This document shows, in pieces, positions 2,455 through 56,868 of a stretch of 64,000 nucleotides of DNA (its first letter is position 1; the number at the start of each line of letters is the position of its first letter). Origin of the DNA: Escherichia coli O157 typing phage 13. A program made the position numbers and the translations under genes. The notes beneath the pieces are model-generated. The model made no database searches. It saw only the letters and a program-made list of their open reading frames with translations, and was not told where the DNA came from. The stretch lies in the sequence record KP869111, one strand, 5' to 3'.

Positions 2455-2482
2455 AATATTCTCCTCATGTTTTAATAGGACT

Positions 2483-2512
2483 ACTATAACATAGCCCTAT
2501 CAAGATGTAAAC
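2483..2512 (-). promoter_or_regulatory. T4-type early promoter (-35 GTTTAC, 18-nt spacer, -10 TATAGT)
   Basis: Minus-strand gtttac...tatagt then GAGGAG RBS and ATG at 2454. Confidence 0.55.
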
Positions 2513-2515
2513 TAC

Positions 2516-2803
2516 TTACAGAAGAGTTTTTGCAATAATTTTAAGCTGAGCTACAGAAATATGCTTAGCTTTAAACAGTGCGGTCTCTTCAGCCGGAGAG
2601 ATAACAATAGTAGCGCCATCTTTCTTAGCAGACCATCCATCCCCTAAGTAAACAGTACCTTTTACTTCTTCGCCGTCAACCAGACTAATCATTGGTTTAC
2701 CCTCACGTCCTTTATTTGCTTTAATAACTTCGGAAGTAAGGGTTGCTTCGGTCAGAGTAGAAACGTTAGCAACAGGTGATATAAATTCTTTATAGGTTTT
2801 CAT
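2516..2803 (-). CDS. ipI: internal protein (IPI-like) with N-terminal capsid targeting sequence
   Basis: 95 aa; N-terminus MKTYKEFI... and LTE cleavage-type motif typical of T4 internal proteins; located beside 57B as ipI in T4. Confidence 0.7.
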   Translation of the reverse strand: MKTYKEFISPVANVSTLTEATLTSEVIKANKGREGKPMISLVDGEEVKGTVYLGDGWSAKKDGATIVISPAEETALFKAKHISVAQLKIIAKTLL

Positions 2804-2837
2804 TTTATTTCCTTGAGGTTGTTTATTTGATAGGATG

Positions 2838-2867
2838 ATAGTATCACACCATCATACTTATGTAAAC
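2838..2867 (-). promoter_or_regulatory. T4-type early promoter (GTTTAC - 18 nt - TGTGATACTAT)
   Basis: Consensus-like -35/-10 with extended TG upstream of ipI-like gene. Confidence 0.6.
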
Positions 2868-2880
2868 TGTTTTGTGAAAA

Positions 2881-3566
<686 letters not shown>

Positions 3567-3570
3567 TTTA

Positions 3571-4305
3571 TTACCTTAAGATTGTTTCAATTTTAGAATA
3601 AAGCTCTTCTAAAGAGCCGTCGTTTGTAATAACTAAATCGCCTTCTTCAATAGGCAACCCAGCTTCTGTAATATGTTTATCAGTGGATTCCGTACCAGAG
3701 CGAACCACATGAATAACTGTAGCACCCATCGCTCTAGCGGTTTCCATTTCATGGACTTGGCGTGTATCGGTTACAACATAGTAATCGAAATCACTTCCAA
3801 TATAATCCATATAGTTTAATGCAAAAAGTTTAACCCAATACATACGGTCAAATAAATTAACGACAACATCCGTACCGAGGGCTTGCATAAGACGGCGGAT
3901 TGACCATGTGTCGTTGATATTATTTATAGCTTCACGCAGGGCTTCATACGGTTTAATATCTAGATATGAATACCCACCTTCTAAGGATGATAATACTTTA
4001 ACATTATTAATTGGTAAATATTGACTTTGTAAATAAATTAGCGCTTCTTCCAATAATTCAATAACATCCAACTTATTGAGATTTAATGGTGTTTCACGGT
4101 CATATCCGACACCTTCAAAGTATTCGTATTTCAACTCTGTGAATACATTAGGGTTTTCGGCATGTTTACGTCCCCAGGCTATTGCTAGAGCGTCTTTAAT
4201 CGGATATGCCAATTGGTATTTTACGGATTTAAAGTTTGAATTGATGTAATCAGCAGTGGTGTCTTTACCACTACGTTTGACGCCACTTAAAAAGATTAGC
4301 TCCAT
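3571..4305 (-). CDS. 1: gp1 deoxynucleoside monophosphate kinase
   Basis: 244 aa; P-loop GVKRSGKDT; T4 gene order. Confidence 0.9.
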   Translation of the reverse strand: MELIFLSGVKRSGKDTTADYINSNFKSVKYQLAYPIKDALAIAWGRKHAENPNVFTELKYEYFEGVGYDRETPLNLNKLDVIELLEEALIYLQSQYLPINNVKVLSSLEGGYSYLDIKPYEALREAINNINDTWSIRRLMQALGTDVVVNLFDRMYWVKLFALNYMDYIGSDFDYYVVTDTRQVHEMETARAMGATVIHVVRSGTESTDKHITEAGLPIEEGDLVITNDGSLEELYSKIETILR

Positions 4306-4360: not shown

Positions 4361-4943
4361 AACGCAAGGAAGGGTGTCTAGAAATGGATTTAGATTCGAC
4401 TGCTTGACGTGGTTGTTGAGATACAATGACTTCACCATCCTTTTCTATCGTCATATACGCATAGTGAATAGTTGCTACGCACGTAACGGCAGGGTCAGAA
4501 TCTTCAGTGTAACTAAATTCAATTTCGCTCAGATCGGAAATCCATGGTTTATAGAAATTTGCCGTCAAAACTACTTCTGTCTTATTGTTATTTAAAATGT
4601 GCAAAGTAACAAACTCAGGACCATCGGAGTGGGCAGTATTATGTCCGGTTATATAGTTATTAGTGCTGAGCATCCATTTATACATGTTCATCCAGGACGT
4701 CATGTCTTCATCAACTATAAATCGTACAATAAAAGGGTCGTATTCAAATGTGGTGCCTGCACGCATTGCACGTCCTAACCCCATTGTGCCTGTCACAGTT
4801 TCAACAACAGGAATTCTCACACCTGGCAACGGTGCCGTTTGAGCATTGAGCACAAAACCCGAAGTTCGTGTACTATCTGGGATATCCACAACAAAGTTTG
4901 TTATATTTGTTTGGTTAAAAATCTGTCTCGTTGGACGAGTCAT
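4359..4943 (-). CDS. 3: gp3 tail completion / sheath stabilizer
   Basis: Track ORF starts at GTG 4949; ATG at 4943 has GAGGTG SD; synteny between 1 and 2. Confidence 0.8.
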   Translation of the reverse strand: MTRPTRQIFNQTNITNFVVDIPDSTRTSGFVLNAQTAPLPGVRIPVVETVTGTMGLGRAMRAGTTFEYDPFIVRFIVDEDMTSWMNMYKWMLSTNNYITGHNTAHSDGPEFVTLHILNNNKTEVVLTANFYKPWISDLSEIEFSYTEDSDPAVTCVATIHYAYMTIEKDGEVIVSQQPRQAVESKSISRHPSLR

Positions 4944-5045
4944 AAGCACCTCAAAAACGCTTTAATAAAAATGCAGTATAATGGTTTTAGGTCTCTTCCA
5001 TTAATCTGGTTCAACAGAATATCAGAAGAACGGAAGAGAATAGAA

Positions 5046-5867
5046 TTAAGATTTCCAAACAGTATTCGCAGAGAAACGTTTTCCTTTTGACATAAATTGC
5101 TGAGTAGGTAACATGATTATGTTAGCCCAGTCTTTAGGAGCTATTTCTGTTATTGTTCCTCTAATGTGGCCTGGCAGGTATGCTTTAATCATTTTGTCCG
5201 CACCTTGAAATCCTTTCACCTTGCTCCAGTCTATCTTCAACTTTGTGTTATTAGTAATAGTAGTTGTGCTAGCATATTGCTTCAGCAATTCTTCAAGAAA
5301 CTGTTGTCGTGCTTTAGGTGGGATATAGTGCAAGTTTAACCCATACATCAAATTATGTTTACCTAATCCTAAATAAATAATCAAAGGATATCTGTCCCAA
5401 TACGGCAGAGTATCTTTATGTTTAGCATCATACACGTAAGTATAAATTTTGCCTGGCGTAGGCTTGACTACTTTATGACCTTTTACACTTTTCTTAATTG
5501 TTTCAACAAACCACTTAGATGATTTGTTGTTTACTGCTGCGCCTTCATTTCTAATCTTTTCTCGTATTGAACTGCGAAACGAGTTTATCATCAGAAGTTG
5601 ACGTTCTTGCTTATTGAGTTTATTTTTAGGTTTAGATTCAAGCGTTTCAATTTTCTGTGCAGTCTTAATAGATGATGCATATCTAGACATTGCAGATGTA
5701 AACGACGAGTATTTTATTCCTTTTGATTCTGCAAATGCTTTTGCAGTGATTCCTTTCTCTTTAGCTTTCTTGTATTCTAATCCTATCTCAATCCATTTTC
5801 TTTCATTCATAGACTGAGCAATCTTAGGGGCTTGTACGCCTTCAGATATAATTTGGAATATGCTCAT
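5046..5867 (-). CDS. 2: gp2 DNA end protector protein
   Basis: 273 aa; T4 gene order 3-2-4. Confidence 0.85.
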
Positions 5868-5869
5868 AA

Positions 5870-6319
5870 TTACCCCTTGTATCCGAGTTTTCTAAGACCA
5901 TCTTCGGTTAGAACTCGAAATTTTATATTTCTCTTTTCAGCAACAGCTGAGGCAGCTTTCCATTTGTCACAGTTCACAGACCAGGTATATATTTCATTCA
6001 TATAACGTTTCTTTGCTGCGGTAGTAAGATTTGCGGGCTTAATAGGTGGTTGAGTTTCTTTCTTTGGTTTTATTTCTACAAAGAACTCTTGACCTGATGC
6101 ATCTTTCATCCATATGTCCATATAGTATCGACGTTTCTTACCTTCAGCATTACAAAAATATGGAATTACTGCTGTTTCACTACCCCATGCAATAATTTCT
6201 GGATTTTTATCCAACCATTCGAAAAAGAATTTTTCCCAGTTTGAACGATACGTTATTTTGGTATGGTCTCCACGGTATTTTTTTAAATTTTTTGGGACCC
6301 ATTTACCAGAGTAGGCCAT
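5870..6319 (-). CDS. 4: gp4 head completion protein
   Basis: Start moved to ATG at 6319 (MAYSGKW...); track ORF extends upstream in frame. Confidence 0.8.
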
Positions 6320-6330
6320 GTTGTCCTCCT

Positions 6331-6338
6331 TATAAATA
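6331..6338 (+). promoter_or_regulatory. late promoter TATAAATA upstream of gene 53
   Basis: Exact TATAAATA about 40 nt upstream of gp53 start. Confidence 0.6.
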
Positions 6339-6345
6339 GTATTAT

Positions 6346-6353
6346 TATTTATA
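6346..6353 (-). promoter_or_regulatory. late promoter TATAAATA (minus strand) upstream of gene 4
   Basis: Exact TATAAATA in the divergent 4/53 intergenic region. Confidence 0.55.
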
Positions 6354-6956: not shown

Positions 6957-8689
6957 TGGAAATGATTAGCAGTAGCCTTAATTGGTTCGTGGGTGTTGTC
7001 GAGGACAGAATGGACCCATTAAAACAAGGGCGAGTTCGAGTTCGAGTCGTTGGTCTTCATCCAGCACAGAGAGCACAAGGTGATGTACAAGGTATTCCTA
7101 CAGAAAAACTTCCATGGATGACTGTTATTCAACCTATTACGTCTGCATCAATGTCAGGTATTGGTGGTTCTGTTACAGGTCCTGTTGAAGGAACTCGAGT
7201 ATATGGTCATTTCTTAGACAAATGGAAAACAAACGGGATTGTACTTGGTACATACGGCGGAATCGTACGTGAAAAGCCTAATAGACTTGAAGGTTTTTCA
7301 GACCCGACAGGCCAGTATCCGCGACGTTTAGGTAATGATACGAACGTATTAAACCAAGGTGGTGAAGCTGGTTATTATTCAAACTCTAACGTAATTCAAG
7401 ATAACAACTTGGATTATGGTATAAACCCGGATGATACAGATTTAGCAAATATTCCGGAAGATGATGACCCTAATTTTACAATAACAGAAATGTTACGTCG
7501 TGACGAAGGTCTTCGTGATAAAGTGTATTGGGACCATCTCGGATATCCTACCGTAGGTATTGGACACCTTATAGTAATGGAAAAAACCCGAGATATGTCT
7601 AGAATTAATAAATTGTTATCCGATCAAGTAGGGCGTGAAGTAACAGGAAATCCTGGGACTATTACATTAGAAGAAGCAACAGCGTTATTTGAGAAAGACC
7701 TTGCTAAGATGCAGAAAGACATTCGTTCTAATTCTAAAGTAGGTCCTGTTTATGCTAAAATGAACAGATCTCGCCAAATGGCATTAGAAAACATGTGCTT
7801 CCAAATGGGCGTTGGTGGTGTAGCAAAATTCAATACTATGCTTAAAGCAATGGCCGAAGGCGATTGGAAAACTGCATACAAATCTGGACGCGATTCATTA
7901 TGGTTCCAACAGACTAAAGGGCGTGCTTCACGTGTAACAACAATTATTTTAACCGGTAACATGGAATCATACGGTGTTCCTGTTAAAACACCGCCTTCAC
8001 CAGGAGTTGGTGCTGATTTAGTTACTAGAAATACCGATCCGGAAGACCCTGCTGGTCCTCCTGTTCCATTAGATTCACGTATCCTTTTTAAAGAACCTGA
8101 ATCAAGTTATCGTGGTGAGTATCCATACGTTCATGCTATGGAAACAGAAAGTGGTCATATCCAAGAGTTTGACGATACTCCAGGTAATGAACGTTATCGC
8201 TTAGTTCATCCAACAGGGTCATATGAGGAAGTTTCTCCGTCTGGGCGTCGTACTCGTAAAACTGTAGAAGACCTTTTTGACATCACTAATGGTGATGGGA
8301 ACTTCTTGATTTCTGGCGATAAGCTTGTTAACGTTGGTGCTAATGAAATATATTATAACATGGCAGACCGCCTCCATCAAATAGACGGCAATGACACAAT
8401 CTTTATTCGTGGTAACCAATCTAAAACTGTTGAAGGCGATGGAACTCTTTACGTTAAGGGTAATATCAAAATAGTTGTTGACGGAAATGCAGATATTCTT
8501 GTTAAAGGTGATGCTAAAACTCAGGTCGAAGGGAATCATGATTACACCGTCAACGGAAACGTTAAATGGACTGTTAATGGTAATGTTGATATGACTGTTG
8601 CCGGTGATTGGGCAGAAAGAATGTCTACAATGAGCTCAGTAGCTTCAGGACAATACACTGTTGACGGATCTCGTATTGATATTGGGTAA
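6956..8689 (+). CDS. 5: gp5 baseplate hub / cell-puncturing protein with lysozyme domain
   Basis: 577 aa; T4-lysozyme-like segment DEGLRDKVYWDHLGYPTVGIGHL; C-terminal beta-helix repeats (VxGxxxxxV). Confidence 0.95.
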   Translation: MEMISSSLNWFVGVVEDRMDPLKQGRVRVRVVGLHPAQRAQGDVQGIPTEKLPWMTVIQPITSASMSGIGGSVTGPVEGTRVYGHFLDKWKTNGIVLGTYGGIVREKPNRLEGFSDPTGQYPRRLGNDTNVLNQGGEAGYYSNSNVIQDNNLDYGINPDDTDLANIPEDDDPNFTITEMLRRDEGLRDKVYWDHLGYPTVGIGHLIVMEKTRDMSRINKLLSDQVGREVTGNPGTITLEEATALFEKDLAKMQKDIRSNSKVGPVYAKMNRSRQMALENMCFQMGVGGVAKFNTMLKAMAEGDWKTAYKSGRDSLWFQQTKGRASRVTTIILTGNMESYGVPVKTPPSPGVGADLVTRNTDPEDPAGPPVPLDSRILFKEPESSYRGEYPYVHAMETESGHIQEFDDTPGNERYRLVHPTGSYEEVSPSGRRTRKTVEDLFDITNGDGNFLISGDKLVNVGANEIYYNMADRLHQIDGNDTIFIRGNQSKTVEGDGTLYVKGNIKIVVDGNADILVKGDAKTQVEGNHDYTVNGNVKWTVNGNVDMTVAGDWAERMSTMSSVASGQYTVDGSRIDIG

Positions 8690-8692
8690 TAT

Positions 8693-9208
8693 ATGGCACA
8701 AATACTTCCTTTAAATACCGACTTAGGAGAAGACATGGAAGGGGCGTCTATTGACGTCCTTTTTACTCCACAGTTAGAAACAACCGAAACTTTAGTGTCA
8801 ATAAATATAACAGATTATGAACCGACACAAGGCATTACGGTAGACGGCAATCGTTTATATGGAACATATGAAAGTGTGTTTAGCTTTTCTTCGGATGCAT
8901 TGAAATACCGATTAAATGATGATTTTGAAACAGCATCTTCATGGGATGATTTACCAAAAGATGAATCCACACAGTTATATTTGTGGAGAGCTCCTCAGAA
9001 TCTTCGTAAAGTGTTTAGTTATACGGTTGAAATGATTTATAACTACCAAGAAGAAAGTTCATCAGGCGGTTCTAGAAGTGACTCTGGTACAGAACCTCCA
9101 CCGGCTCCAGTACAAAAAACTCTTACTAAGGTTTATACAAAAACTATAGTAGGAAATTGGAGCAAATGGGCTCATCAATTACGAAACTATGTTTATGTGA
9201 GGCCGTGA
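8693..9208 (+). CDS. 5.1: gp5.1-like hypothetical protein
   Basis: 171 aa ORF between gene 5 and 5.4. Confidence 0.7.
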
Positions 9209-9210
9209 AA

Positions 9211-9504
9211 ATGTCTGGCTTAAGTTACGACAAGTGCGTTACAACAGGTCATGAAGCATGGCCTCCTACTGTAATAAATGCTTCCCAATCTAAAGTATTC
9301 ACCGGCGGTATTCCTGTTCTTGTAGCAGGAGACCAAATAACACCTCATACAGAAATTAAAAAACCATACGAGACTCATGGAGGTGTTACTGAACCTCGTA
9401 CATCTAAAGTATACGTCACCGGTAAAAAGGCCGTTCAAATGGCTGACCCAATTTCATGCGGGGATACTGTTTCTCAGGCCTCGTCAAAAGTCTTTATAAA
9501 ATAG
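9211..9504 (+). CDS. 5.4: gp5.4 PAAR-repeat spike tip protein
   Basis: ATG at 9211 gives 97 aa [19 protein letters not shown]...; track ORF 9157 is an upstream extension. Confidence 0.8.
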
Positions 9505-9512
9505 GAATTAAA

Positions 9513-11486
9513 ATGGCAAACACTCCTGTAAATTATCAATTAACCCGAACAGCGAATGCTATTCCCGAGATTTTTATCGGGGGCACATTTGCCGAAATCA
9601 AACAGAACATTATCGAATGGCTCCATGGACAGAATGAATTTCTTGACTATGATTTTGAAGGTTCACGCTTAAACGTATTGTGCGACCTTTTAGCATATAA
9701 CACTCTTTACATCCAACAGTTCAGTAATAGTGCAGTGTATGAAAGTTTTATGCGCACTGCAAACTTGCGTAGCTCTGTTGTACAAGCGGCTCAAGATAAC
9801 GGATATCTGCCTTCATCTAAATCAGCAGCACAAACAGAAATTATGCTCACATGTACGGATGCGTTAAATAGAAACTATATCACCATTCCACGTGGCACTC
9901 GTTTCTTAGCATATGCTAAAGATACTTCTGTTAACCCATATAACTTTGTTTCTACTGAAGATGTCATTGTAGTTAAAGACAAAAATAACCAATATTTCCC
10001 ACGTCTTAGATTAGCTCAGGGACGTATTGTTCGTACTGAATTAACATTTGATAAATTAAAACCTATCATTATTCGTGATAAGAACATTGACCGTAATTTA
10101 GTTAAGTTGTACGTTGATGGAGCAGAATGGATTAACTGGACTCGTAAGTCGATGGTTCACGCTGGTTCTACGTCAACAATCTATTATATGCGTGAAACAG
10201 TTGATGGGAACACCGAATTTTATTTTGGTGAAGGCGAAATCTCTATTAACACATCAGAAGGTGCGTTAACATCCAACTATATTGGTGGCCTTAAACCTGT
10301 TCAGGGTTCTAAAATCGTAATTGAGTATATTTCTACTAATGGCGCAGATGCTAACGGTGCTGTAGGATTTTCTTATGCTGATACATTAGCTAATATCACG
10401 GTAATCGATATTAATGAGAACCCTAGCAATAACCCAGACTTTGTCGGGGCCGATGGCGGCGGCGACCCTGAAGATATTGAACGTATTCGAGAATTAGGCA
10501 CAATTAAACGCGAAACTCAACAACGTTGTGTAACCGCTTCCGACTATGACACATTCGTCTCTGAGCGGTTTGGTTCTATTATTCAAGCAGTTCAAACATT
10601 CACAGATTCGTCTAAACCTGGGTATGCATACATTGCTGCTAAGCCTAAATCTGGATTGTATTTGACTTCTGTCCAACGTGATGATATCAAAAACTATTTG
10701 AATGATTATAACTTAGGGACTATTACACCTGTTGTTATTTCGCCTGATTATTTGTTTATCAAAATGAATATCAAAGTTACGTACGCGTTGAATAAACTCC
10801 AAGAATCAGAACAATATCTTGAAGGGCAAATTATTAATAAAATTGACCGATATTATATTGAAGATGTAGAAATTTTTAACTCATCGTTTGCAAAATCTAA
10901 AATGCTAACTTATGTCGATGATGCAGATATTTCTATTATTGGTTCTTCAGCTACTATTCAAATGGTTCGCGAAGTACAGAACTTTTATAAAACGCCTGAG
11001 GCCGGTATTAAATACAATAATCAGATTAAAGATAGATCGATGGAATCTAATATATTCTCGTTTGATTCGCACAGACCTAATCCAGAAAATGCAAACGAAA
11101 CTATTAAATACGGTGTTCGCATAGTATCTTCTGACCGTAATGACCGTGGCATAGGTCAAGTTATTATTGGTCCATTTGCAGATGGCGATGTTGTTGAAAA
11201 CGAAAATATACAACCTTATACAGGTAATGATTTTAATAAACTTACTGTTACTGACGGACGAAACAAATACTATTCAATTGGTGAGGTGAATTATCCTGCC
11301 GATTCGATTTATTGGAACATTGCTAAAATTGACCTCACTTCAGACCGTTTTGAAGTTCAGACAATTGAACTTTATTCCGACCCTGCAGATGATATTATTT
11401 TTACAAAGGATGGTTCTTTAATCGTATTCGAAAATGACTTACGTCCTCAGTACTTAACTATAGATTTGGAGCCTATTTCACAATGA
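9513..11486 (+). CDS. 6: gp6 baseplate wedge protein
   Basis: ATG at 9513 (MANTPVNYQL) follows gp5.4 stop; track start 9456 overlaps 5.4. Confidence 0.9.
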   Translation: MANTPVNYQLTRTANAIPEIFIGGTFAEIKQNIIEWLHGQNEFLDYDFEGSRLNVLCDLLAYNTLYIQQFSNSAVYESFMRTANLRSSVVQAAQDNGYLPSSKSAAQTEIMLTCTDALNRNYITIPRGTRFLAYAKDTSVNPYNFVSTEDVIVVKDKNNQYFPRLRLAQGRIVRTELTFDKLKPIIIRDKNIDRNLVKLYVDGAEWINWTRKSMVHAGSTSTIYYMRETVDGNTEFYFGEGEISINTSEGALTSNYIGGLKPVQGSKIVIEYISTNGADANGAVGFSYADTLANITVIDINENPSNNPDFVGADGGGDPEDIERIRELGTIKRETQQRCVTASDYDTFVSERFGSIIQAVQTFTDSSKPGYAYIAAKPKSGLYLTSVQRDDIKNYLNDYNLGTITPVVISPDYLFIKMNIKVTYALNKLQESEQYLEGQIINKIDRYYIEDVEIFNSSFAKSKMLTYVDDADISIIGSSATIQMVREVQNFYKTPEAGIKYNNQIKDRSMESNIFSFDSHRPNPENANETIKYGVRIVSSDRNDRGIGQVIIGPFADGDVVENENIQPYTGNDFNKLTVTDGRNKYYSIGEVNYPADSIYWNIAKIDLTSDRFEVQTIELYSDPADDIIFTKDGSLIVFENDLRPQYLTIDLEPISQ

Positions 11487-14400
11487 CAGTAAAAGCGCCA
11501 GCAGTCACAAGTCTCAGAATATCCAAGTTGTCCGCTAACCAAGTTCAAATACGCTGGGATGACGTTGGTGCTAATTTCTACTATTTCGTAGAAATCGCTG
11601 AGACTAAAACGGCAGACGGGGAAATAATTCCCCCTGCCAGCTACAGATGGATAAATTTAGGATATACCCCTAATAACAACTGGTTCGAAAGTAGCTTAGA
11701 CCCATTAACTTCTTATATTATTCGTGTATCAACTGCCGCTGAAGGCTTCGAGAGATCTGATTGGGTATATACCGAAATATTTGAATCATTTCAGACTAAC
11801 GCGTATACATTTCAACATATGATTGAAATGCAATTGGCTAACACTTTTATTAGAGAAAAATTTACAAATAACAACATGGCTTATGTCGATTTTAATAACG
11901 ACACTATAATGGCAGCTCTAATGAATGAATCGTTCCAATTTAGCCCTGCTTATGCAGATATTTCATCTATTAAAAATTTCATTATTGGCGAAAATGAGTA
12001 TCATGAAATTCAAGGTTCGATTCAACAGGTGTGTCATGATATAAACCGTGTTTATTTGATGGAATCCGAAGGAATTCTTTATTTGTTTGAACGGTATCAG
12101 CCTGTGGTTAAAGTCTCTAATGATAAGGGACAAACCTGGAAATCGGTTAAATTGTTTAATGACCGTGTAGGGTACCCTGTATCAAGAACAGTGTATTACC
12201 AGACAGATTACACCACGTATGTTCTTGGGTATGATAAATTATTTTACGGCCGTAAATCAACTGACGTTCGTTGGTCTGCTGATGATGTGAGATTTAGTTC
12301 TCAAGATATAACATTTGCTAAAATTGGTGACCAGTTAAATTTAGGATTTGATGTAGAAATATTTGGTAACTACGCATCATTACCTGCTAACGTGTCACGT
12401 ATTGCAGAAGCTATCGTTTGCAATGACGATTATGTGTACGTCGCTGCTCGAGATAAAGTTCGTTTTATTAAAACTAGTAATGCCCCTATCGATTCAGACC
12501 CGTTATCTCCGACGTATTCCGAACGTTTGTTTGAACAAGAAACATTTAACATCACAGGTAACCCTAAGGCAGTTTGTTATAAAATGGATTCTGTCGGCGG
12601 TAAAATATTTGCACTGATTATCGGTGAAGTTGTTAATCTTAATGACGACCCGAGGACCACTCCTATTGTTGATTCTGCTGATAAGGGTATTTACGTTCTA
12701 GACCATGATGCTGGCACATTTAAACGTGTGTTTGGTAATACTGAAGAAGAACGCCGTCGTATTGAACCTGGGTACACCAGTATGTCTACTGATGGTGTTG
12801 AGTTATCTATTTCATCTAGTAATTTTAAATTTCTAGAATCGGATATTGTTGATGACCCAAAAACGCAAATCAAGTACGGTTTAATCGGTGCTGTTAAATA
12901 TGAGTATCCTCGCGAATGGTTGGCTGATAAACATTATCATATGATGGCATTTATTTCAACTGAAGACTCTCAATGGGAATCGTTCACTCCTCAACCGATG
13001 GAATACTATGCTGAGCCATTCTTTAGTTATTCTAGAAAGTCTGGTACTCGTTGTTGGATTAATAACTCAGACAAGGCCGTTGTAATTTATTCTGATTTAC
13101 TTTACACTAAGGTTATTGAGAATCATCCACTTAGTTCTTCAGACCGTGAAGTTCATGAATATTGGAAGGACGGTGACTGTACAATAGTGATGCCTAACGT
13201 GGATTTCACCGGATTTAAAAAATATGCATCCGGCATGATTTTCTATAAATCATCAGGTGAGATTATTTCTTATTATGATTTTAGTTATCGTGTTAGAGAT
13301 AATGTTTCTATAATTTGGAAGCCTACTAATATATTCTTAACAGCATCATTACAAAACCAAGAAAAAGATACCACATGGACTCCTGTAGAAGAGAATGGTA
13401 TTGCAGACCCAGATTTACGTCCATTGCTCACTACAATGATGCCGGAGTCTTATCTTTTAGATAATACAAACTTTGAAGCGTTCTGCGAGGCTTATATTCA
13501 GTATCTTTCTGACGGTTATGGGACCCATTATAACAACCTTTTGAATCTTATTAAAAATCAATATCCGCGCGAAGAACATGCGTGGGAATACTTATGGTCT
13601 GAGATTTATAAACGAAACATTTACTTAAACGCCGAAAAACGCGATTTAGTGTCTCGTTTCTTTGAATCAAGAAGTTATGACTTCTATTCAACTAAAGGAA
13701 CTGAAGCATCATATAAATTCTTGTTTAAAGTGCTTTATAACGAAGATGTTGAAATTGAAATTGAATCTAGTTCCGGGACCGAATATGATATCATCATTGA
13801 ATCTGATTCGTTGACAGAAGATTTGGTCGGACAAACCATATACACCGCTACAGGACGTTGTAATGTGACGTATATCGAGAGAAGTTACTCTAAAGGTAAA
13901 TTACAATGGACTGTAACAATTCACAACCTCTTAGGTCGTTTAATCCAAGGACAGGAAGTTAAAGCTGAAAGACTCCCTGGTTTTGAAGGTGAAATTGTTC
14001 GTGGTATTAAAGGTAAAGAGCTTTCTCAGAACAACATCGATTACATAAATCGTGGTAGAGCATACTACGTAATGAAGATTAAATCTAAACTTCCGTCATC
14101 TCGTTGGAAATCAGACGTATTACGTTTTGTTCATCCGGTTGGATTTGGATTTATCGCAATTACCCTTCTCACAATGTTTATTAACACCGGATTAACACTT
14201 AAACATGTTGAAACCATTATTAATAAATACAAAAACTATAAGTGGGATTCTGGATTACCGACTAAATATGCAGACCGAGTGGCTAAATTAGACCCACAAG
14301 GAAATGTTGAGTTTGACCCTATTACAGGTAAAGCGATATATGAAATAGGCCCTATGGCTGGTCAAGATTATCCATTGCCTGAAGATTATAACGCTGAAAA

Positions 14401-14581
14401 CAATAACTCCATATTTCAAGGTCAACTTCCATCGGAACGACGTAAACTGATGAGCCCATTATTTGATGCGTCCGGAACAACATTCTCTAGATTTAGAGAT
14501 TTGGTTGAACAACGGTTAATCGATAATGTAGGAAATCCAAGAGACCCCGTGAATCCACCACAGGTTAAATTAGATGAATGA
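11483..14581 (+). CDS. 7: gp7 baseplate wedge protein
   Basis: 1032 aa, ATGA overlap with gp6; T4 order. Confidence 0.9.
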   Translation: MTVKAPAVTSLRISKLSANQVQIRWDDVGANFYYFVEIAETKTADGEIIPPASYRWINLGYTPNNNWFESSLDPLTSYIIRVSTAAEGFERSDWVYTEIFESFQTNAYTFQHMIEMQLANTFIREKFTNNNMAYVDFNNDTIMAALMNESFQFSPAYADISSIKNFIIGENEYHEIQGSIQQVCHDINRVYLMESEGILYLFERYQPVVKVSNDKGQTWKSVKLFNDRVGYPVSRTVYYQTDYTTYVLGYDKLFYGRKSTDVRWSADDVRFSSQDITFAKIGDQLNLGFDVEIFGNYASLPANVSRIAEAIVCNDDYVYVAARDKVRFIKTSNAPIDSDPLSPTYSERLFEQETFNITGNPKAVCYKMDSVGGKIFALIIGEVVNLNDDPRTTPIVDSADKGIYVLDHDAGTFKRVFGNTEEERRRIEPGYTSMSTDGVELSISSSNFKFLESDIVDDPKTQIKYGLIGAVKYEYPREWLADKHYHMMAFISTEDSQWESFTPQPMEYYAEPFFSYSRKSGTRCWINNSDKAVVIYSDLLYTKVIENHPLSSSDREVHEYWKDGDCTIVMPNVDFTGFKKYASGMIFYKSSGEIISYYDFSYRVRDNVSIIWKPTNIFLTASLQNQEKDTTWTPVEENGIADPDLRPLLTTMMPESYLLDNTNFEAFCEAYIQYLSDGYGTHYNNLLNLIKNQYPREEHAWEYLWSEIYKRNIYLNAEKRDLVSRFFESRSYDFYSTKGTEASYKFLFKVLYNEDVEIEIESSSGTEYDIIIESDSLTEDLVGQTIYTATGRCNVTYIERSYSKGKLQWTVTIHNLLGRLIQGQEVKAERLPGFEGEIVRGIKGKELSQNNIDYINRGRAYYVMKIKSKLPSSRWKSDVLRFVHPVGFGFIAITLLTMFINTGLTLKHVETIINKYKNYKWDSGLPTKYADRVAKLDPQGNVEFDPITGKAIYEIGPMAGQDYPLPEDYNAENNNSIFQGQLPSERRKLMSPLFDASGTTFSRFRDLVEQRLIDNVGNPRDPVNPPQVKLDE

Positions 14582-15578
14582 TTCAAGTGTTATCTATCGT
14601 GCAATAGTTACATCAAAATTTAGAACAGAGAAAATGCTGAATTTTTATAATTCAGTTGGGGATGGAGATGATAAGAACTCCATTTATATTACGTTTGGAC
14701 GTTCAGAGCCTTGGGCGTCAAATGAAAATGAGGTGGGCTTCGCCCCACCTTATCCTACAGATTCTGTTCTTGGTGTTACTGATATGTGGACCCATATGAT
14801 GGGTACCGTTAAAGTTTTACCTTCAATGTTAGATTCTGTTATTCCTAGACGTGATTGGGGAGATGTGCGATATCCAGACCCTTACACGTTTAGAATTAAC
14901 GATATAGTCGCATGTAATACTGCTCCGTACAACGCGACAGAAGTTGGAGCTGGTTGGTTAATTTACCGTTGTTTAGATGTCCCTGACGTAGGGCTCTGTT
15001 CAATAGAATCTTTAGATAATAAAGATGAATGTCTTAAATTAGGTGGTAAATGGACTCCGTCTGTTCGTTCTATGTCTCCTCCTGAAGGCAGAGGCGATGC
15101 TAATGGGGTCATCGAAACAGGTGATGGATATATTTGGGAATATCTTTATGAGATTCCTGCTGATGTGTCAATTAACCGTTGCACTAACGAATATCTTGTA
15201 GTTCCATGGCCGGAAGAAATTAAAGAAGACCCCACCCGTTGGGGATATGAAAATAACTTAACTTGGCAACAAGATGACTACGGTTTGATTTACCGTGTTA
15301 AAGCTAATACGATGCGGTTTAAAGCATATTTTGATTCTGTTTATTTCCCTGAGGCAGCTTTGCCTGGTAACAAGGGTTTTAGACAGATATCAATTATCGC
15401 AAACCCGTTAGAAGCTAAGAAAAATCCAAATGACCCTAATGTTAAAGCAGAAAAGGATTATTACGACCCTAGAGACCTGCAACGTCATTCCGGTGAAATG
15501 ATTTATATGGAAAACCGACCACCTGTTATTATGGCAATGGACCAAACAGAAGAAATTAACATTTTGTTTATGTTTTAA
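14574..15578 (+). CDS. 8: gp8 baseplate wedge protein
   Basis: 334 aa; synteny. Confidence 0.9.
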   Translation: MNDSSVIYRAIVTSKFRTEKMLNFYNSVGDGDDKNSIYITFGRSEPWASNENEVGFAPPYPTDSVLGVTDMWTHMMGTVKVLPSMLDSVIPRRDWGDVRYPDPYTFRINDIVACNTAPYNATEVGAGWLIYRCLDVPDVGLCSIESLDNKDECLKLGGKWTPSVRSMSPPEGRGDANGVIETGDGYIWEYLYEIPADVSINRCTNEYLVVPWPEEIKEDPTRWGYENNLTWQQDDYGLIYRVKANTMRFKAYFDSVYFPEAALPGNKGFRQISIIANPLEAKKNPNDPNVKAEKDYYDPRDLQRHSGEMIYMENRPPVIMAMDQTEEINILFMF

Positions 15579-15581
15579 TTA

Positions 15582-15606
15582 GGGAGCCTTCGGGCTCCCA
15601 TTTTTG
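15582..15606 (+). terminator. intrinsic terminator hairpin GGGAGCC-UUCG-GGCUCCC followed by T-run
   Basis: Perfect stem with UUCG tetraloop then ATTTTTG after gp8 stop. Confidence 0.7.
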
Positions 15607-15610
15607 TATC

Positions 15611-15618
15611 TATAAATA
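15611..15618 (+). promoter_or_regulatory. late promoter TATAAATA upstream of gene 9
   Basis: Exact motif between terminator and gp9 RBS. Confidence 0.65.
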
Positions 15619-15650
15619 GAATATAATATCGGACAACAAAAGGCAGAATT

Positions 15651-16523
15651 ATGGCATTTTTTAAGCAAACTCCTAAACAATTAATCGATACCGGCGAAAT
15701 TGGTAATGCCTCAACAGGTGATATCTTATTCGACGGTGGTAATAAAATAAATGACGATATCAACGCTATTTACAATGCATTTGGCGATCAACGTAAAATG
15801 GCCGTAGCAGATGGAACCGGACCTACAGGTCAAACTATTCATGCCACAGGTTATTATCAAAAAGGAAAGGCAGCCGATTATCAAACTCCTATTAAACCCG
15901 GCACCATGCATGATATTGATGCTTCTGATGGCGGTGTGATTGTTATTATTGACCGTCCTGAATTAGGTGACTCTGTAGAATTCATAAACTCTAATGGGTC
16001 TATTTCTGTTAACAATCCTTTAAGTATCCAAGTAACTGATGGTTCGATTAAAGGTGTTCTTAATAATCTTGTTATTTCCACCCCTTATACCCATGTTGTT
16101 CTTCGTTGTGTTGAACTTAATGGGCCAACTTCAGTATGGAATTATTCTACTGATAGCATGTTTGGGCAGAAAGAATCTCCTGTCGATGGGACTTGGAGTC
16201 TTACAGGAAACACAGTTTCTATTCCTCTGTTTTATCGCACGGATTATAACATGGCCAAATTGCTTGTTACATGCCAATCCGCCGACGGTAGAAAAATAAA
16301 AACATGCGAAATAAATATTCTAATAGATACAATTAACTCAGAAGTTCTTTCTACCGAATTTGCAGTAATGCGAGTTGGTAATGTAGATGAAACCGACGAG
16401 ATTGCTAATATTAGCTTTAGTATTATTAACAACTTTGCTACTATGACGATTACATCCGATATTATTGGATTACGTTCGGCAGTTAAAATTATCTCAACTC
16501 AGAAAATTGGGGTCGCTCAATAA
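15651..16523 (+). CDS. 9: gp9 baseplate wedge / long tail fiber socket
   Basis: 290 aa; synteny. Confidence 0.9.
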   Translation: MAFFKQTPKQLIDTGEIGNASTGDILFDGGNKINDDINAIYNAFGDQRKMAVADGTGPTGQTIHATGYYQKGKAADYQTPIKPGTMHDIDASDGGVIVIIDRPELGDSVEFINSNGSISVNNPLSIQVTDGSIKGVLNNLVISTPYTHVVLRCVELNGPTSVWNYSTDSMFGQKESPVDGTWSLTGNTVSIPLFYRTDYNMAKLLVTCQSADGRKIKTCEINILIDTINSEVLSTEFAVMRVGNVDETDEIANISFSIINNFATMTITSDIIGLRSAVKIISTQKIGVAQ

Positions 16524-18328
16524 TGAAACAAAATATTAAAATTGGTAACGTCGTTGATGACGGACAAGGCGATTACCTTCGTCGAGGTGGTGAAAAAATA
16601 AATGAGAACTTTGACGAAATCTATTATGAATTAGGTGATGGTGAAGTTCCTTATGCAGCTGGTGCATGGAAGACTTATGATGCGGCTGATGGTCTTAATC
16701 TTAAGGCTGCTTGGGGTAAATCTTATGCAATTAATACTACTTCTGGGCGAGTTTCGGTAAATCTTCCTAAAGGGACAATTGCAGACTATAATAAAGTTAT
16801 TCGTGCTCGTGACGTATTTGCAACTTGGAACATTAACCCTGTTACTTTAATTCCGGCAAACGGAGACACGATTAAAGGTTCTTCATCTCCGGTAGAAATT
16901 AACGTTCAGTTCTCTGATTTAGAATTAGTTTATTGTGCTCCTGGACGTTGGGAATACATCAAGAACAAACAAATTGATAAAATAGTTAGCTCTGACATTA
17001 GTAATGTTGCTCGTAGAGAATATCTTGTTGAAACCCAAGGTCAGACCGATTTCATGGATGTTTTTAACGGGACCTCTTATAACGTTAACAACATTCGCGT
17101 AAAACATCGTGGCAACGAATTGTATTATGGTGATGTATTCAGTGATAATAGTGATTTTGGTTCTCCGGGCGCTAATCCTGGTGAACTGGTTGCACTCGAT
17201 GGATTTAATATTAGATTACGCCAACCATGTAATGTTGGGGACACTGTACAAATTGAGACATTCCTAGACGGTGTTTCTCAGTGGCGTAGTTCATATACTC
17301 GTCGCCAAGTTCGCATTTTAGATAGTAAATTGACTGCTAAAAAGTCTATTGACGGAAGTATTTACGTCACTGATTTGAGTACGTTCAGGTCTATTCCATT
17401 TACAGCATTTGGTATTAATCCTACGGAACCACCTAACCCGAATTCATTAGAAGTTCGCTTCAATGGTATTCTCCAAGAATTAGCTGGTACTGTTGGAACT
17501 CCTATTTTCCGTTGTGAAGGTGTGGATGCTGATTCTGAAGAGTCATGCGCTAATCTCGGTGGGACATGGACTCAATCGTATACAGATTATGCGATTGAAT
17601 ATACTGATAATATCCCTAGCGCAATTCTGTTTGACCGTCAATTTGAAGACCAAGACATTATTACCATAACATGGTTTAATAACGATTTAGGAACTCTTCT
17701 TGAAATGGAAGAAATTCTTGATGTCGCTGATGAGAAATATGTTTCTCAAGGGTCTAACATTGAAATTACTGGTGACGTTGCATTAACCGATTTCGATAAA
17801 ATTGGATGGCCTAATGTAGAACCTGTTCCTAAGTATGAACGTGAATTCTCGACTATCTCAGCAATATTTGACACAATTTATCCTGTTGGGACTATTTACG
17901 AAAATGCTGTTAACCCTAATAATCCGGCCACTTATTTAGGTTTTGGTTCATGGAAAATTTGGGGGCAAGGCAAAGTATTAGCAGGTTGGAATGACGACGC
18001 GTCGGATCCTAATTTTGCATTAAATAATAATGACCTTGACGTCAATGGTAACCCTACTCATACCGCAGGTGGTACCGTTGGTGTAACAACCATCACATTA
18101 GAAAATGCTGATTTACCGGCTACACAAACCGATGAAAAGGTTCTTATTTCTGATGATAATGGTACAGTAATTATAGGCGGCTGCCAATATGACCCGGATG
18201 AAGAAGGTCCTATTTACACTAAATATCGTGAAGACCATGCAAAGACTAATGGATCTCATGTTCCAGCGCGTTCTATAACTAATATTCAGCCATCTATAAC
18301 TGTATACCGTTGGGTAAGGATTGCATAA
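16523..18328 (+). CDS. 10: gp10 baseplate wedge protein
   Basis: 601 aa; synteny. Confidence 0.9.
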
Positions 18329-18987: not shown

Positions 18988-20639
18988 GTAATAACAATAC
19001 ATACCAACACGTTTCAAACGAATCCATTTACGTTGAATTCGACCCTACGGGGTCGAATTTTCCAGATACAGTCACTAATGTCCAAGCCGCATTAGCTGCT
19101 ATTTCTCCTTCAGGTGTTAATGGTGTACCGGAAGCAACAACTACTACACCAGGAATTATTCAAATAGCTACTCCACAAGAAGTTATTGATGGACTAGATA
19201 ATAGTAAAGCTGTTACTCCGGCATCACTGAATGCTCGTCTACAATATCCTAATGCAACCGAAACTCAATATGGCTTAACTCGTTATGCTACTGAAGATGA
19301 AGCAGTAACAGGAACTATTGACGATGCATCAATTACTCCGCTTAAATTGAATCAAAAAATAGACAATGTATTCCAGACAAAAGTGTCAACAGAAGCATCA
19401 AATGGTGTAATTAAAATTTCGACTTCTGCTGCGGCATTAGCCGGTTCTGACGATACGACGGCAATGACTCCGTTAAAAACGCAACAATTGGCAATTAAAC
19501 TTATTTCGCAAATTGCTCCAAATAATAGTGACGCCACTGAATCTATTACCGGTGTTGTTCGTTTGGCTACAGTTGCTCAAGCGCAACAAGGCACCCTGCG
19601 TGAAGGCTATGCAATTTCACCTTATACCTTTATGAATTCAGTAGCATCAGAAACTAATAAAGGTGTCGTTAAACTAGGGACACAGACTGAAGTAAATAGT
19701 AACAACTCTTCAGTTGTAGTGACCGGCGCAACATTAAACGNNNNNNNNNNNNNNNNNNNNNNNNNNNNNNNNNNNNNNNNNNNNNNNNNNNNNNNNNNNN
19801 NNNNNNNNNNNNNNCGTGGGGCTACAACTTCTTTACGTGGAGTTGTTCGTTTAACTACACAAGCTGGTAGCCAATCAGGTGGTGATGGTTCTTCTGCCCT
19901 TGCTTGGAATGCTGATGTTATCCACCAACGAGGCGGACAAACTATTAATGGCACGCTTCGCATTAATAATACGTTGACTGTTGGTTCTGGTGGCGCTAAT
20001 ATAACGGGTAATGTCAATATGACCGGTGGTTATATTCAAGGCAATCGTATTGTGACTCAAAATGAATTAGACCGAATTCTCCCAGTTGGCGCTATTACAA
20101 TGTGGGCTGCAGATAGTTTACCGAGTTCTGACTGGCGCTTCTGTCACGGTGGGACCGTTTCTGCTTCAGAATGTCCGGTATATGCTTCCAGAATTGGGAC
20201 ACGATATGGCGGTAGTTCTTCTAACCCAGGCTTGCCTGATATGCGTGGATTATTTGTTCGCGGCTCAGGTCGTGGCTCTCACTTAACAAATCCAAATGTT
20301 AATGGTAATGACCAGTTTGGTAAGCCTAGATTAGGTGTAGGTTGTACCGGTGGATATGTCGGTGAAGTGCAAAAACAACAGATGTCATATCATAAGCATG
20401 CTGGCGGTTTTGGTGAACATGATGATTCTGGAGCATTCGGTAATACCCGTAGATCAAATTTTGTTGGTACACGTAAAGGACTTGACTGGGATAACCGTTC
20501 ATACTTCACCAATGACGGATATGAAATTGACCCGGCATCACAACGAAATTCCAAATATACATTAAATCGTCCTGAATTAATTGGAAATGAAACACGTCCA
20601 TGGAACATTTCTTTAAACTATATCATTAAGGTAAAATAA
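18984..20639 (+). CDS. 12: gp12 short tail fiber
   Basis: 551 aa; contains masked N-run but frame is preserved; conserved C-terminal receptor-binding region. Confidence 0.85.
19741..19814. other. run of N (masked/undetermined bases) inside gene 12
   Basis: 74 N; ORF continues in frame. Confidence 0.95.
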
Positions 20640-31512: not shown

Positions 31513-31937
31513 TGTATCTTATCCCTGAATCTTATGAATTGGTACTCGAAAATGTCGAAGCACTTATTCCTGAAGCACAGGGCCGAATCGATGCATTGTC
31601 TTCTGCTCTCGATATTGACGATATAAATACTATTATCGAGAACATGCTTGAAACTGAAACGGATTTAGCTGTTGCAATGGCTTCCATTATTAATGAAGAA
31701 CAGTTAAACGAGTTTATCGTTAAACATGTTTCTTCTCGTGGTGAAGTCACCCGCACTAAAGACCGTAAAACTCGTGAACGTAACGCGTTCCAAACAACCG
31801 GTCTTTCTAAAGCAAAACGTAGACAAATCGCTCGTAAGGTCGTTAAAGCTAAAAAAGCTAACCCTTCAGGCCAAGTTAAAGGCTTGCGTAAGCGTAAAAA
31901 AGCTCTTAAACGTCGTAAAGCATTAGGATTAAGCTAA
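31512..31937 (+). CDS. 68: gp68 prohead core protein
   Basis: 141 aa, basic C-terminus; synteny. Confidence 0.8.
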
Positions 31938-32578
31938 TGAATAAACCCGAGTTACTTATTGAAACTTGGGGTCAACCCGGTGAGATTATTGATGGCGTTC
32001 CAATGTTGGAATCTCATGATGGAAAAGATTCTGGCTTAAAACCAGGGCTTTATATAGAAGGTATTTTTCTTCAGGCAGAGGTTGTTAACCGAAATAAACG
32101 TTTATATCCTAAACGTGTTTTGGAAAAAGCCGTAAGCGACTATATTAAAGAACAAGTCGCAACCAAACAAGCCCTTGGAGAATTAAATCATCCACCTCGT
32201 GCAAATGTTGACCCTATGCAAGCCGCTATCATTATTGAAGATATGTGGTGGAAAGGAAACGATGTATATGGACGTGCTAGAATTATTGAAGGCGACCATG
32301 GTCCCGGCGATAAATTAGCTGCTAATATACGAGCTGGTTGGATTCCAGGTGTTTCCTCTCGTGGTCTTGGTTCTTTAACCGACACCAATAAAGGGTACCG
32401 TATCGTGAACGAAGGATTTAAATTAACCGTCGGTGTAGATGCCGTATGGGGTCCTTCTGCTCCAGATGCTTGGGTTACTCCTAAACAAATATCAGAATCA
32501 GAAAATTCGGTGGAAATCACCAAAAACAGTGCTGATGAAGCATTTAAAGCTCTCGCAGAGAGTTTAAAAGCATTATAA
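31937..32578 (+). CDS. 21: gp21 prohead protease
   Basis: 213 aa; synteny. Confidence 0.9.
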   Translation: MNKPELLIETWGQPGEIIDGVPMLESHDGKDSGLKPGLYIEGIFLQAEVVNRNKRLYPKRVLEKAVSDYIKEQVATKQALGELNHPPRANVDPMQAAIIIEDMWWKGNDVYGRARIIEGDHGPGDKLAANIRAGWIPGVSSRGLGSLTDTNKGYRIVNEGFKLTVGVDAVWGPSAPDAWVTPKQISESENSVEITKNSADEAFKALAESLKAL

Positions 32579-32611: not shown

Positions 32612-33424
32612 ATGATCAAAGAACAACTTTTGAAAGAAGCTCAGAACATCGAGACTTCAGTTGCTCTTAATAGTGTTTTCGAATCAGTAGAACTGTCTCC
32701 GGACGTTAAAGCTAATTTCAGCACTGTATTCGAAGCCACCGTTAAGCAGGAAGCAGTCAAACTGGCTGAATCTCATATCAAAGCCATCGCCGAAAAGGCC
32801 GAAGAAGAAGTTGAAAAGGCTAAAGAAGATGCTGAAGAGAAAGCTGATAAAAAATTGGCTGAACAAGCTTCTAAATTCCTAGACCATCTTGCAAAAGAAT
32901 GGCTCGCAGAAAACCAAATCGCAGTTGATAAAGGCATTAAAGCTGATTTGTTCGAATCCATGCTTGGTGGTCTGAAAGAACTGTTTGTTGAACATAACGT
33001 TGTTGTTCCAGAAGAATCTGTAGATGTTGTAGCAGAAATGGAAGAAGAGCTGGCCGAACATAAAGAAGAAACCGCTCGTTTGTTCGAAGAAGTTACCAAA
33101 CGTGATGCATATATCAATTACGTTCAGCGTGAAACCGCTATTAATGAAAGCGTGAAAGACCTGACTGAATCTCAGAAAGAAAAAGTTATTGGCCTGGTTG
33201 AAGGTATGGATTATTCTGACGCATTTGGTACTAAGTTAACTGCTATTGTAGAAATGGTTAAAGGTTCTACTAAAGAAGAAGCCGCTATTACCGAAAGTAT
33301 AAATACAGTTGACAATGACGCTGCCGGTCTTAATTTTGTTGCCGAAGCAGTTGACACTACCACAACTCAGGTAGAACAGAATTCTAATGTAAGTTTATAT
33401 GCGAAAGTCGCATCTCGTTTCTAA
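32612..33424 (+). CDS. 22: gp22 prohead core scaffold protein
   Basis: 270 aa, highly acidic/helical; synteny. Confidence 0.9.
   Translation: MIKEQLLKEAQNIETSVALNSVFESVELSPDVKANFSTVFEATVKQEAVKLAESHIKAIAEKAEEEVEKAKEDAEEKADKKLAEQASKFLDHLAKEWLAENQIAVDKGIKADLFESMLGGLKELFVEHNVVVPEESVDVVAEMEEELAEHKEETARLFEEVTKRDAYINYVQRETAINESVKDLTESQKEKVIGLVEGMDYSDAFGTKLTAIVEMVKGSTKEEAAITESINTVDNDAAGLNFVAEAVDTTTTQVEQNSNVSLYAKVASRF
33298..33305 (+). promoter_or_regulatory. late promoter TATAAATA inside the 3' end of gene 22, upstream of gene 23
   Basis: Exact motif about 137 nt upstream of gp23 ATG, as expected for T4 P23. Confidence 0.5.
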
Positions 33425-56750: not shown

Positions 56751-56868
56751 NNNNNNNNNNNNNNNNNNNNNNNNNNNNNNNNNNNNNNNNNNNNNNNNNN
56801 NNNNNNNNNNNNNNNNNNNNNNNNNNNNNNNNNNNNNNNNNNNNNNNNNNNNNNNNNNNNNNNNNNNN
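56751..56868. other. run of N (masked/undetermined bases)
   Basis: 118 N. Confidence 0.95.

Follow-up and report, generated by a model that had tools for sequence, protein, structure and literature searches.

We asked whether the small gene directly downstream of 57B in Escherichia coli O157 typing phage 13 specifies an anti-restriction activity of its own or encodes a protein already known from other T-even phages. The initial annotation of a 64,000-nucleotide stretch of this phage (sequence record KP869111; the whole stretch is called the window here) had described a 95-aa internal protein with a capsid-targeting sequence at this position, and had suggested that its mature region of about 76 aa may carry a distinct anti-restriction function. 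Our analysis leaves us highly confident that the ORF is ipI, that the phage is a Mosigvirus (an RB69-like T-even phage), and that the product is the internal protein I precursor. The gene is already known, its product being identical to RB69 IpI, which is published, annotated, and partly characterised. The IPI family includes the first known phage-injected restriction inhibitor, for which a structure has been solved.

The 95-aa ORF beginning with MKTYKEF was confirmed and lies on the minus strand, which the initial annotation had not given (Table 1). The span 2516-2867 proposed for the locus likewise held, its ends coinciding exactly with the stop codon and with the first G of the −35 box GTTTACA. 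The start codon of ipI (2803..2801) is the first ATG past an in-frame TAA. The N-terminal translation reads MKTYKEFISPVANVSTLTE, continues with ATLTSEV... after the cleavage point, and the full 95-aa product is MKTYKEFISPVANVSTLTEATLTSEVIKANKGREGKPMISLVDGEEVKGTVYLGDGWSAKKDGATIVISPAEETALFKAKHISVAQLKIIAKTLL. Residues 20-95 aligned with positions 1-76 of the 76 positions of the Pfam profile PF11634 (IPI_T4, described as 'nuclease inhibitor from bacteriophage T4') with E=1.3e-50, and the score of 169.7 bits, where 25 is the gathering cut-off, shows that ipI is not a chance ORF. The product also matched PHROG 4363, 'internal virion protein' (E=6e-48), and its sole match in the PDB was entry 2JUB, 'Internal protein I' (E=5.8e-42, 72 of 76 residues identical, gapless). 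RB69 IpI (NP_861845), from the same genus, is identical at 95 of 95 residues counted from MKTYKEF, with 99.6% nucleotide identity. A solved structure at 95% identity together with an identical annotated protein settles the identity of the gene. The RefSeq annotation of RB69 ipI (16450-16749 of the RB69 locus, L004) includes four extra upstream codons, giving MEPKMKTYKEF..., and comparison of T4, the window, and other phages places the true RB69 start at MKTYKEF.

Table 1. Coordinates in the window of ipI, its signals, and other features named in the text
Feature	Position	Strand	Evidence
ipI CDS (95-aa precursor; stop codon 2516..2518)	2516..2803	minus	ORF list; Pfam IPI_T4; PHROG 4363; identity to RB69 IpI
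Codons 1-19: capsid-targeting leader MKTYKEF, variable linker ISPVANVST, gp21 site LTE	2747..2803	minus	Alignments; start of the 2JUB chain
Codons 20-95: mature IPI* domain, 76 aa	2519..2746	minus	Pfam profile; PDB 2JUB; dN/dS vs T4
Shine-Dalgarno sequence AAGGA, 6 nt 5' of ATG	2810..2814	minus	Read from sequence
Predicted T4-type early promoter: GTTTACA, 17-nt spacer ending TGA, TACTAT	2838..2867	minus	Promoter scan 9/12 with TG; conservation with T4; same box before the first ip cassette of RB69
Second promoter box, right after the ipI stop: TTTACA-17-TATAGT with TG; 13-bp hairpin	2455..2515	minus	Promoter scan; comparisons
57B	2881..3336	minus	Pfam Acb1, E=1.3e-58
RB69 ORF133c homologue, 101 aa	2149-2454	minus	
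RB69 ORF132c homologue, 228 aa	1461-2147	minus	PHROG 1843
Prohead protease (gene 21), with E19 of the IpI precursor as its expected cleavage point	31937..32578	plus	Pfam Peptidase_S77, E=2.9e-107
gp22 scaffold	32612..33424		T4_CASP, E=1.5e-89
Runs of N	672-748; 19741-19814; 56751-56868		

We determined the distribution of ipI by tblastn against 50,697 phage records. Relatives were present in 290 of them, 288 with at least 80% protein coverage, and copies at least 99% identical in 23. O157 typing phages 3 and 6, ESh15, mar005p1, and PNJ-6 carry a 100% identical IpI. The relatives are labelled 'nuclease inhibitor', 'internal head protein', or 'internal virion protein' in the database. The DNA of the window is 99.8% identical to that of E. 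coli O157 typing phage 6, genus Mosigvirus.

The N-terminal region has the organisation of a gp21-processed propeptide. An LTE motif about 19 residues in, as the initial annotation had stated, was found as L17-T18-E19 followed by A20, and it is in register with the structure, the 76-aa T4 IPI* chain of 2JUB aligning with residues 20-95, from A20 exactly. The pattern MK[TS][YF]x[ED]F occurred a single time in the six frames of the whole 64-kb window, in the ipI leader. Residues M1, K2, T3, E6, and F7 of the leader were invariant in the ten family members that we aligned, which came from Mosigvirus, Tequatrovirus, Dhakavirus, and Moonvirus; the variable portion of the propeptide is the linker, residues 8-14. 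T4 IPI has the same type of leader, a cleavage site after (I/L)-T-E19, a position next to 57B, and promoter elements like those in the window. The MKTY.EF leader, processing by gp21, and injection with the DNA are features common to T4 IPII, IPIII, and other T-even ip-locus proteins, whose similarity to IpI is confined to the leader (PMC12373910). The Pfam IPI_T4 and 2JUB matches, the leader, and the cleavage motif thus bear out the description of the ORF as an internal-protein gene with a targeting leader and a gp21-type site.

The genomic context agrees with that of T4. The gene order 57B(Acb1)-57A-1-3-2-4-53-5 is the same, with 57B to 4 on the ipI strand and 53 and 5 opposite; gene 1, upstream of ipI, encodes a dNMP kinase. 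The ORF lies directly downstream of 57B/57A/1/3/2/4, with 57B as its immediate upstream neighbour, which is the ipI position of T4 and the one to which it had first been assigned. An apparent inverted match at 75% between window positions 4492-6353 and 'L001' was really to the T4 locus and represents ordinary orthologues of genes 3, 2, and 4. The 57B product matches the Pfam family Acb1, an anti-CBASS cyclic-nucleotide phosphodiesterase, and the gene is labelled 'RNA ligase' or 'hypothetical protein' in many records. As this match adjoins ipI, two counter-defence genes appear to stand side by side. The genes for the gp20 portal, the gp22 scaffold, and the gp23 capsid protein adjoin gene 21, with Alt further on, so the window encodes the machinery that an internal protein needs for its packaging and processing.

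The two genes after ipI are homologues of RB69 ORF133c, a predicted membrane protein with its own early promoter, and of RB69 ORF132c. The only match of the 228-aa ORF132c homologue was to PHROG 1843 (unknown function), with none in Pfam; the gene under its match is annotated as a 2OG-Fe(II) oxygenase in one record. The window contains three runs of N (Table 1). The first (77 N) lies at the start of nudE and the end of ORF130c, a place that spans only 2 nt in typing phage 6 and in RB69, and it shortens the ORF call of nudE by one codon; either about 75 nt of extra sequence is hidden there or a mask was inserted.

Upstream of ipI, on the minus strand, we located a predicted promoter with its −35 element GTTTACA at 2867..2861, its −10 element TACTAT at 2843..2838, and an A/T-rich stretch upstream. 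In an alignment with the region upstream of T4 ipI, the −35, TGn, and −10 elements agree base for base, and GTTTACATA and GTGATACTAT are kept at equal distance from the ATG. T4 early promoters have a UP/−35/TGn/−10 architecture (reviewed by Hinton, PMC2988021). By its sequence, the element upstream of ipI is a T4-type early promoter that falls short of a perfect consensus. The initial annotation had called it a consensus early promoter; the early type stood, but 'consensus' was a slight overstatement, as the −10 element agrees with TATAAT at four of six positions and the scan score was 9/12. Another candidate, TTCACA-16-TATGAT at 2878..2851, had a scan score of 10/12 and was rejected, its −10 element not being conserved in T4. 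No late promoter of the form TATAAATA was visible upstream of ipI, and the sequence alone therefore leaves the supply of the protein during head assembly unaccounted for. We found no intrinsic terminator 3' of ipI.

We compared the product with T4 IPI, whose precursor (95 aa) and mature form (76 aa) have the same lengths as in the window. The precursors are identical at 84 of 95 residues (88%), divided into 12 of 19 in the propeptide and 72 of 76 in the mature domain, where the differences, given as window to T4, are V47I, V84A, Q86H, and T93N. In our ten-sequence alignment the mature domains of Mosigvirus and Tequatrovirus varied only at positions 47, 67, 84, 86, and 93, and the variants at these five positions assorted freely; that of Tequatrovirus phage F1 differs from the window solely by T93N. 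The IPI-like proteins of the Dhakavirus phage dhabil (57% identical) and the Moonvirus Salmonella phage KM16 (34%) are encoded at the same locus and have the same leader and a conserved NKGREGK...YLGDG core. A Nei-Gojobori comparison of the window with T4 counted 28 synonymous changes in the mature region and 4 that were non-synonymous (dN 0.023, dS 0.85, dN/dS 0.028), whereas dN/dS for the propeptide is 0.31. These values indicate that the mature IPI* domain is under strong purifying selection. Protein identity to T4 is highest for ipI (88%) among seven neighbouring genes, the others being gene 4 (87%), 57B (85%), gene 2 (76%), gene 1 (62%), gene 3 (59%), and 57A (55%). Hence, the hypervariability that had been ascribed to the locus applies to its gene content, which is polymorphic, but not to ipI itself, the best conserved of the seven. 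The suggestion of a distinct anti-restriction activity did not survive this comparison: the domain is IPI*, nearly that of T4, identical to that of RB69, and strongly constrained. A mature region identical to that of T4 IPI had been named as evidence against the suggestion, and the alignment with T4 IPI comes down in substance to that.

The function can be proposed from what is known of these relatives. T4 IPI is present at about 360 copies per head, is processed by gp21, is injected, inhibits GmrSD, and is dispensable for assembly (PMC9958956; PMC4437046), and the toxicity of the CT596 GmrSD is abolished by co-expression of IPI* (PMC4437046). The DNA of RB69, the type phage of the genus, contains arabinosyl-hmC and not glucosyl-hmC, and according to Thomas et al. 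it is cut by GmrSD, whose restriction of RB69 is prevented by an RB69 IPI with 'four residues different' from that of T4 (PMC6024577); the four differences that we counted between the window and T4 agree with this figure. It is a reasonable inference from genus membership and from that study (PMC6024577) that the DNA of our phage also carries arabinosyl-hmC, and O157 typing phage 3 is listed there among the phages with an at least 97% identical homologue of a candidate arabinose-pathway gene. In the mechanism that we propose, a sigma-70 promoter of the T4 early type would drive ipI, with probable additional transcription reading through from the upstream gene 57B. The 95-aa precursor would enter the scaffolding core of the prohead via its N-terminal MKTYKEF leader, and gp21, the prohead protease whose gene also lies in the window, would cut after Leu-Thr-Glu19 to yield the 76-aa IPI*. 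Ejected with the DNA, IPI* would inhibit the CT596/Eco94-type GmrSD type IV restriction endonuclease, which if uninhibited would cut the glycosylated hydroxymethylcytosine DNA. Packaging, cleavage, and GmrSD inhibition are thus predicted for this phage by identity to RB69 and T4.

The target of the inhibitor could differ while its fold and delivery stay the same. The RB69-type allele (V47, V84, Q86, T93) might inhibit another subset of GmrSD enzymes and be tuned to arabinosyl-hmC DNA. Three of the four differences from T4 fall within the C-terminal 12 residues, and among the ten aligned sequences T93 is found only in Mosigvirus copies. T4 Ip2 and Ip3 are likewise GmrSD inhibitors directed at other subtypes, and Ip1, Ip2, and Ip3 each act strictly on one subtype, with no cross-protection (PMC12373910). 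Furthermore, the UTI89 GmrSD restricts RB69 but spares T4, an effect for which the authors left open whether the IPI substitutions or the arabinose are the cause (PMC6024577); a difference between the T4 and RB69 alleles in GmrSD spectrum is therefore a question already posed in the literature. However, the substitutions are conservative (V/I, V/A, Q/H, T/N) and freely assorting, V84 and Q86 also occur in the Tequatrovirus phages HY03, EC121, and F1, the latter two with V47 as well, and the low dN/dS gives no sign of diversifying selection. RB69 IPI also reportedly protects against the same GmrSD as T4 IPI (PMC6024577). We therefore consider a shifted target improbable. If it were true, the four-residue allele, and above all its residues of the C-terminal helix region (T93, and V84 paired with Q86), would alter the set of GmrSD enzymes that is neutralised, which would explain the restriction by the UTI89 enzyme of RB69-like phages and not of T4, and the locus would offer a natural allelic series for mapping the IPI*-GmrSD interface.

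IpI might instead serve this phage mainly as a dispensable part of the scaffold core or as a DNA counterion in the head, and not act against restriction at all. As a part of the core, IPI is non-essential (PMC9958956), and the relevance of GmrSD to arabinosyl-hmC DNA comes from one study (PMC6024577). Such a role would hardly account for the strong purifying selection on a non-essential 76-aa domain, which exceeds that on the neighbouring structural genes 3 and 57A, and in that same study the CT596 GmrSD cuts RB69 DNA and IPI reportedly prevents the restriction (PMC6024577). We regard a purely structural role as very unlikely, and inhibition of GmrSD by an injected IPI* remains our preferred reading of the gene.

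The polymorphism of the locus concerns the cassettes around ipI. In RB69 the order is 57B - ip(108 aa, MKTYQEFIAE...) - ipI - tRNA.4/.3/.2 - tRNAs ... ORF134c - ORF133c, so that the leader-bearing gene of 108 aa separates 57B from ipI, and ipI leads into tRNA.4/.3/.2 and tRNA genes. Phage SHSML-52-1 has 57B - ipI - a further 'internal head protein' - tRNA.4, and typing phage 6 has 57B - ipI - ip(87 aa, MKTYKEFIAE|SESFALTE...) - ORF133c homologue. In the window, in contrast to RB69, ipI follows directly on 57B and is itself followed by the ORF133c homologue. Compared with RB69, the window is without the 108-aa gene and without an 8.5-kb block that contains tRNA.4/.3/.2, two tRNA genes, e.3-e.8, and several ORFs; the missing segments are 7890-16449 and 16742-17087 of L004 and, compared with typing phage 6, 4116-4379 of its locus (L001). 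The block downstream of ipI has eight tRNA genes in T4 and two in RB69, and none was detected in the whole 64-kb window. None of the 50,697 phage records contained exactly 57B-ipI-ORF133c as one contiguous arrangement. That the ORF might be a novel product of the hypervariable locus, sharing only the leader and carrying a mature domain with a new anti-defence function, is suggested by the 87-aa gene just 3' of ipI in typing phage 6, the 108-aa gene 5' of ipI in RB69, and the further 'internal head protein' genes at the locus in SHSML-52-1 and Salmonella phage KM16, but this idea is refuted by a mature domain that is IPI* itself, identical to RB69 IpI, and by a six-frame scan of the whole 64-kb window that found no second leader-bearing ip ORF, and we give it next to no credence.

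The cassettes of T-even ip loci are organised with a repeated promoter box, as at the locus in the window. Each is preceded by a copy of about 45 nt (GTTTACA..GATAGGrCTATGTTATAGTAGTCCTATyAAAACA). The 87-aa gene of typing phage 6 stands between two direct copies, and the box at 2455..2515 in the window is a single hybrid copy, with its 5' half as in the upstream and its 3' half as in the downstream copy of typing phage 6. This box would drive the next gene, the 101-aa membrane ORF, and forms the rearrangement junction. By local BLAST against RB69, junction 1 maps to 33 nt of the promoter box (window 2468..2500) and junction 2 to 27 nt at the leader and its first codons (2781..2807). The pattern agrees with a shuffling of ip cassettes through homologous recombination, with the repeated regulatory and leader sequences as its substrates and each event a loss or a gain. 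A recombination between repeated sequences that shuffles the ip cassettes was reportedly proposed by Repoila et al. in 1994. The diversity of the ip locus in T-even phages is credited to Repoila et al. 1994 in a later article (PMC12373910).

The promoter boxes of the ip locus fall into two types of near-identical copies, and in each an inverted repeat spans the spacer and the −10 element. They are located at 2455-2515 and 2804-2870 (minus) in the window, at 4041-4130 and 4366-4459 in L001, and at 7875-7975, 16364-16464, 16738-16800, and 17100-17200 in L004 (RB69). An RNA hairpin of −15.9 kcal/mol (z −2.9) is predicted after ipI in the window and one of −17.4 kcal/mol (z −3.6) before T4 ipI; the one predicted before ipI in the window is weak (z −0.8). 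The stem sequences differ between T4 and this phage with the pairing preserved. Candidate roles for these hairpins are a recombination substrate, the 3' end of a read-through RNA, or occlusion of the promoter.

Overall, the gene content of this locus is hypervariable while IPI is among the most conserved genes of the neighbourhood. Because IPI is conserved within a hypervariable locus, leader-bearing ORFs found here should be checked against IPI* before they are called new.
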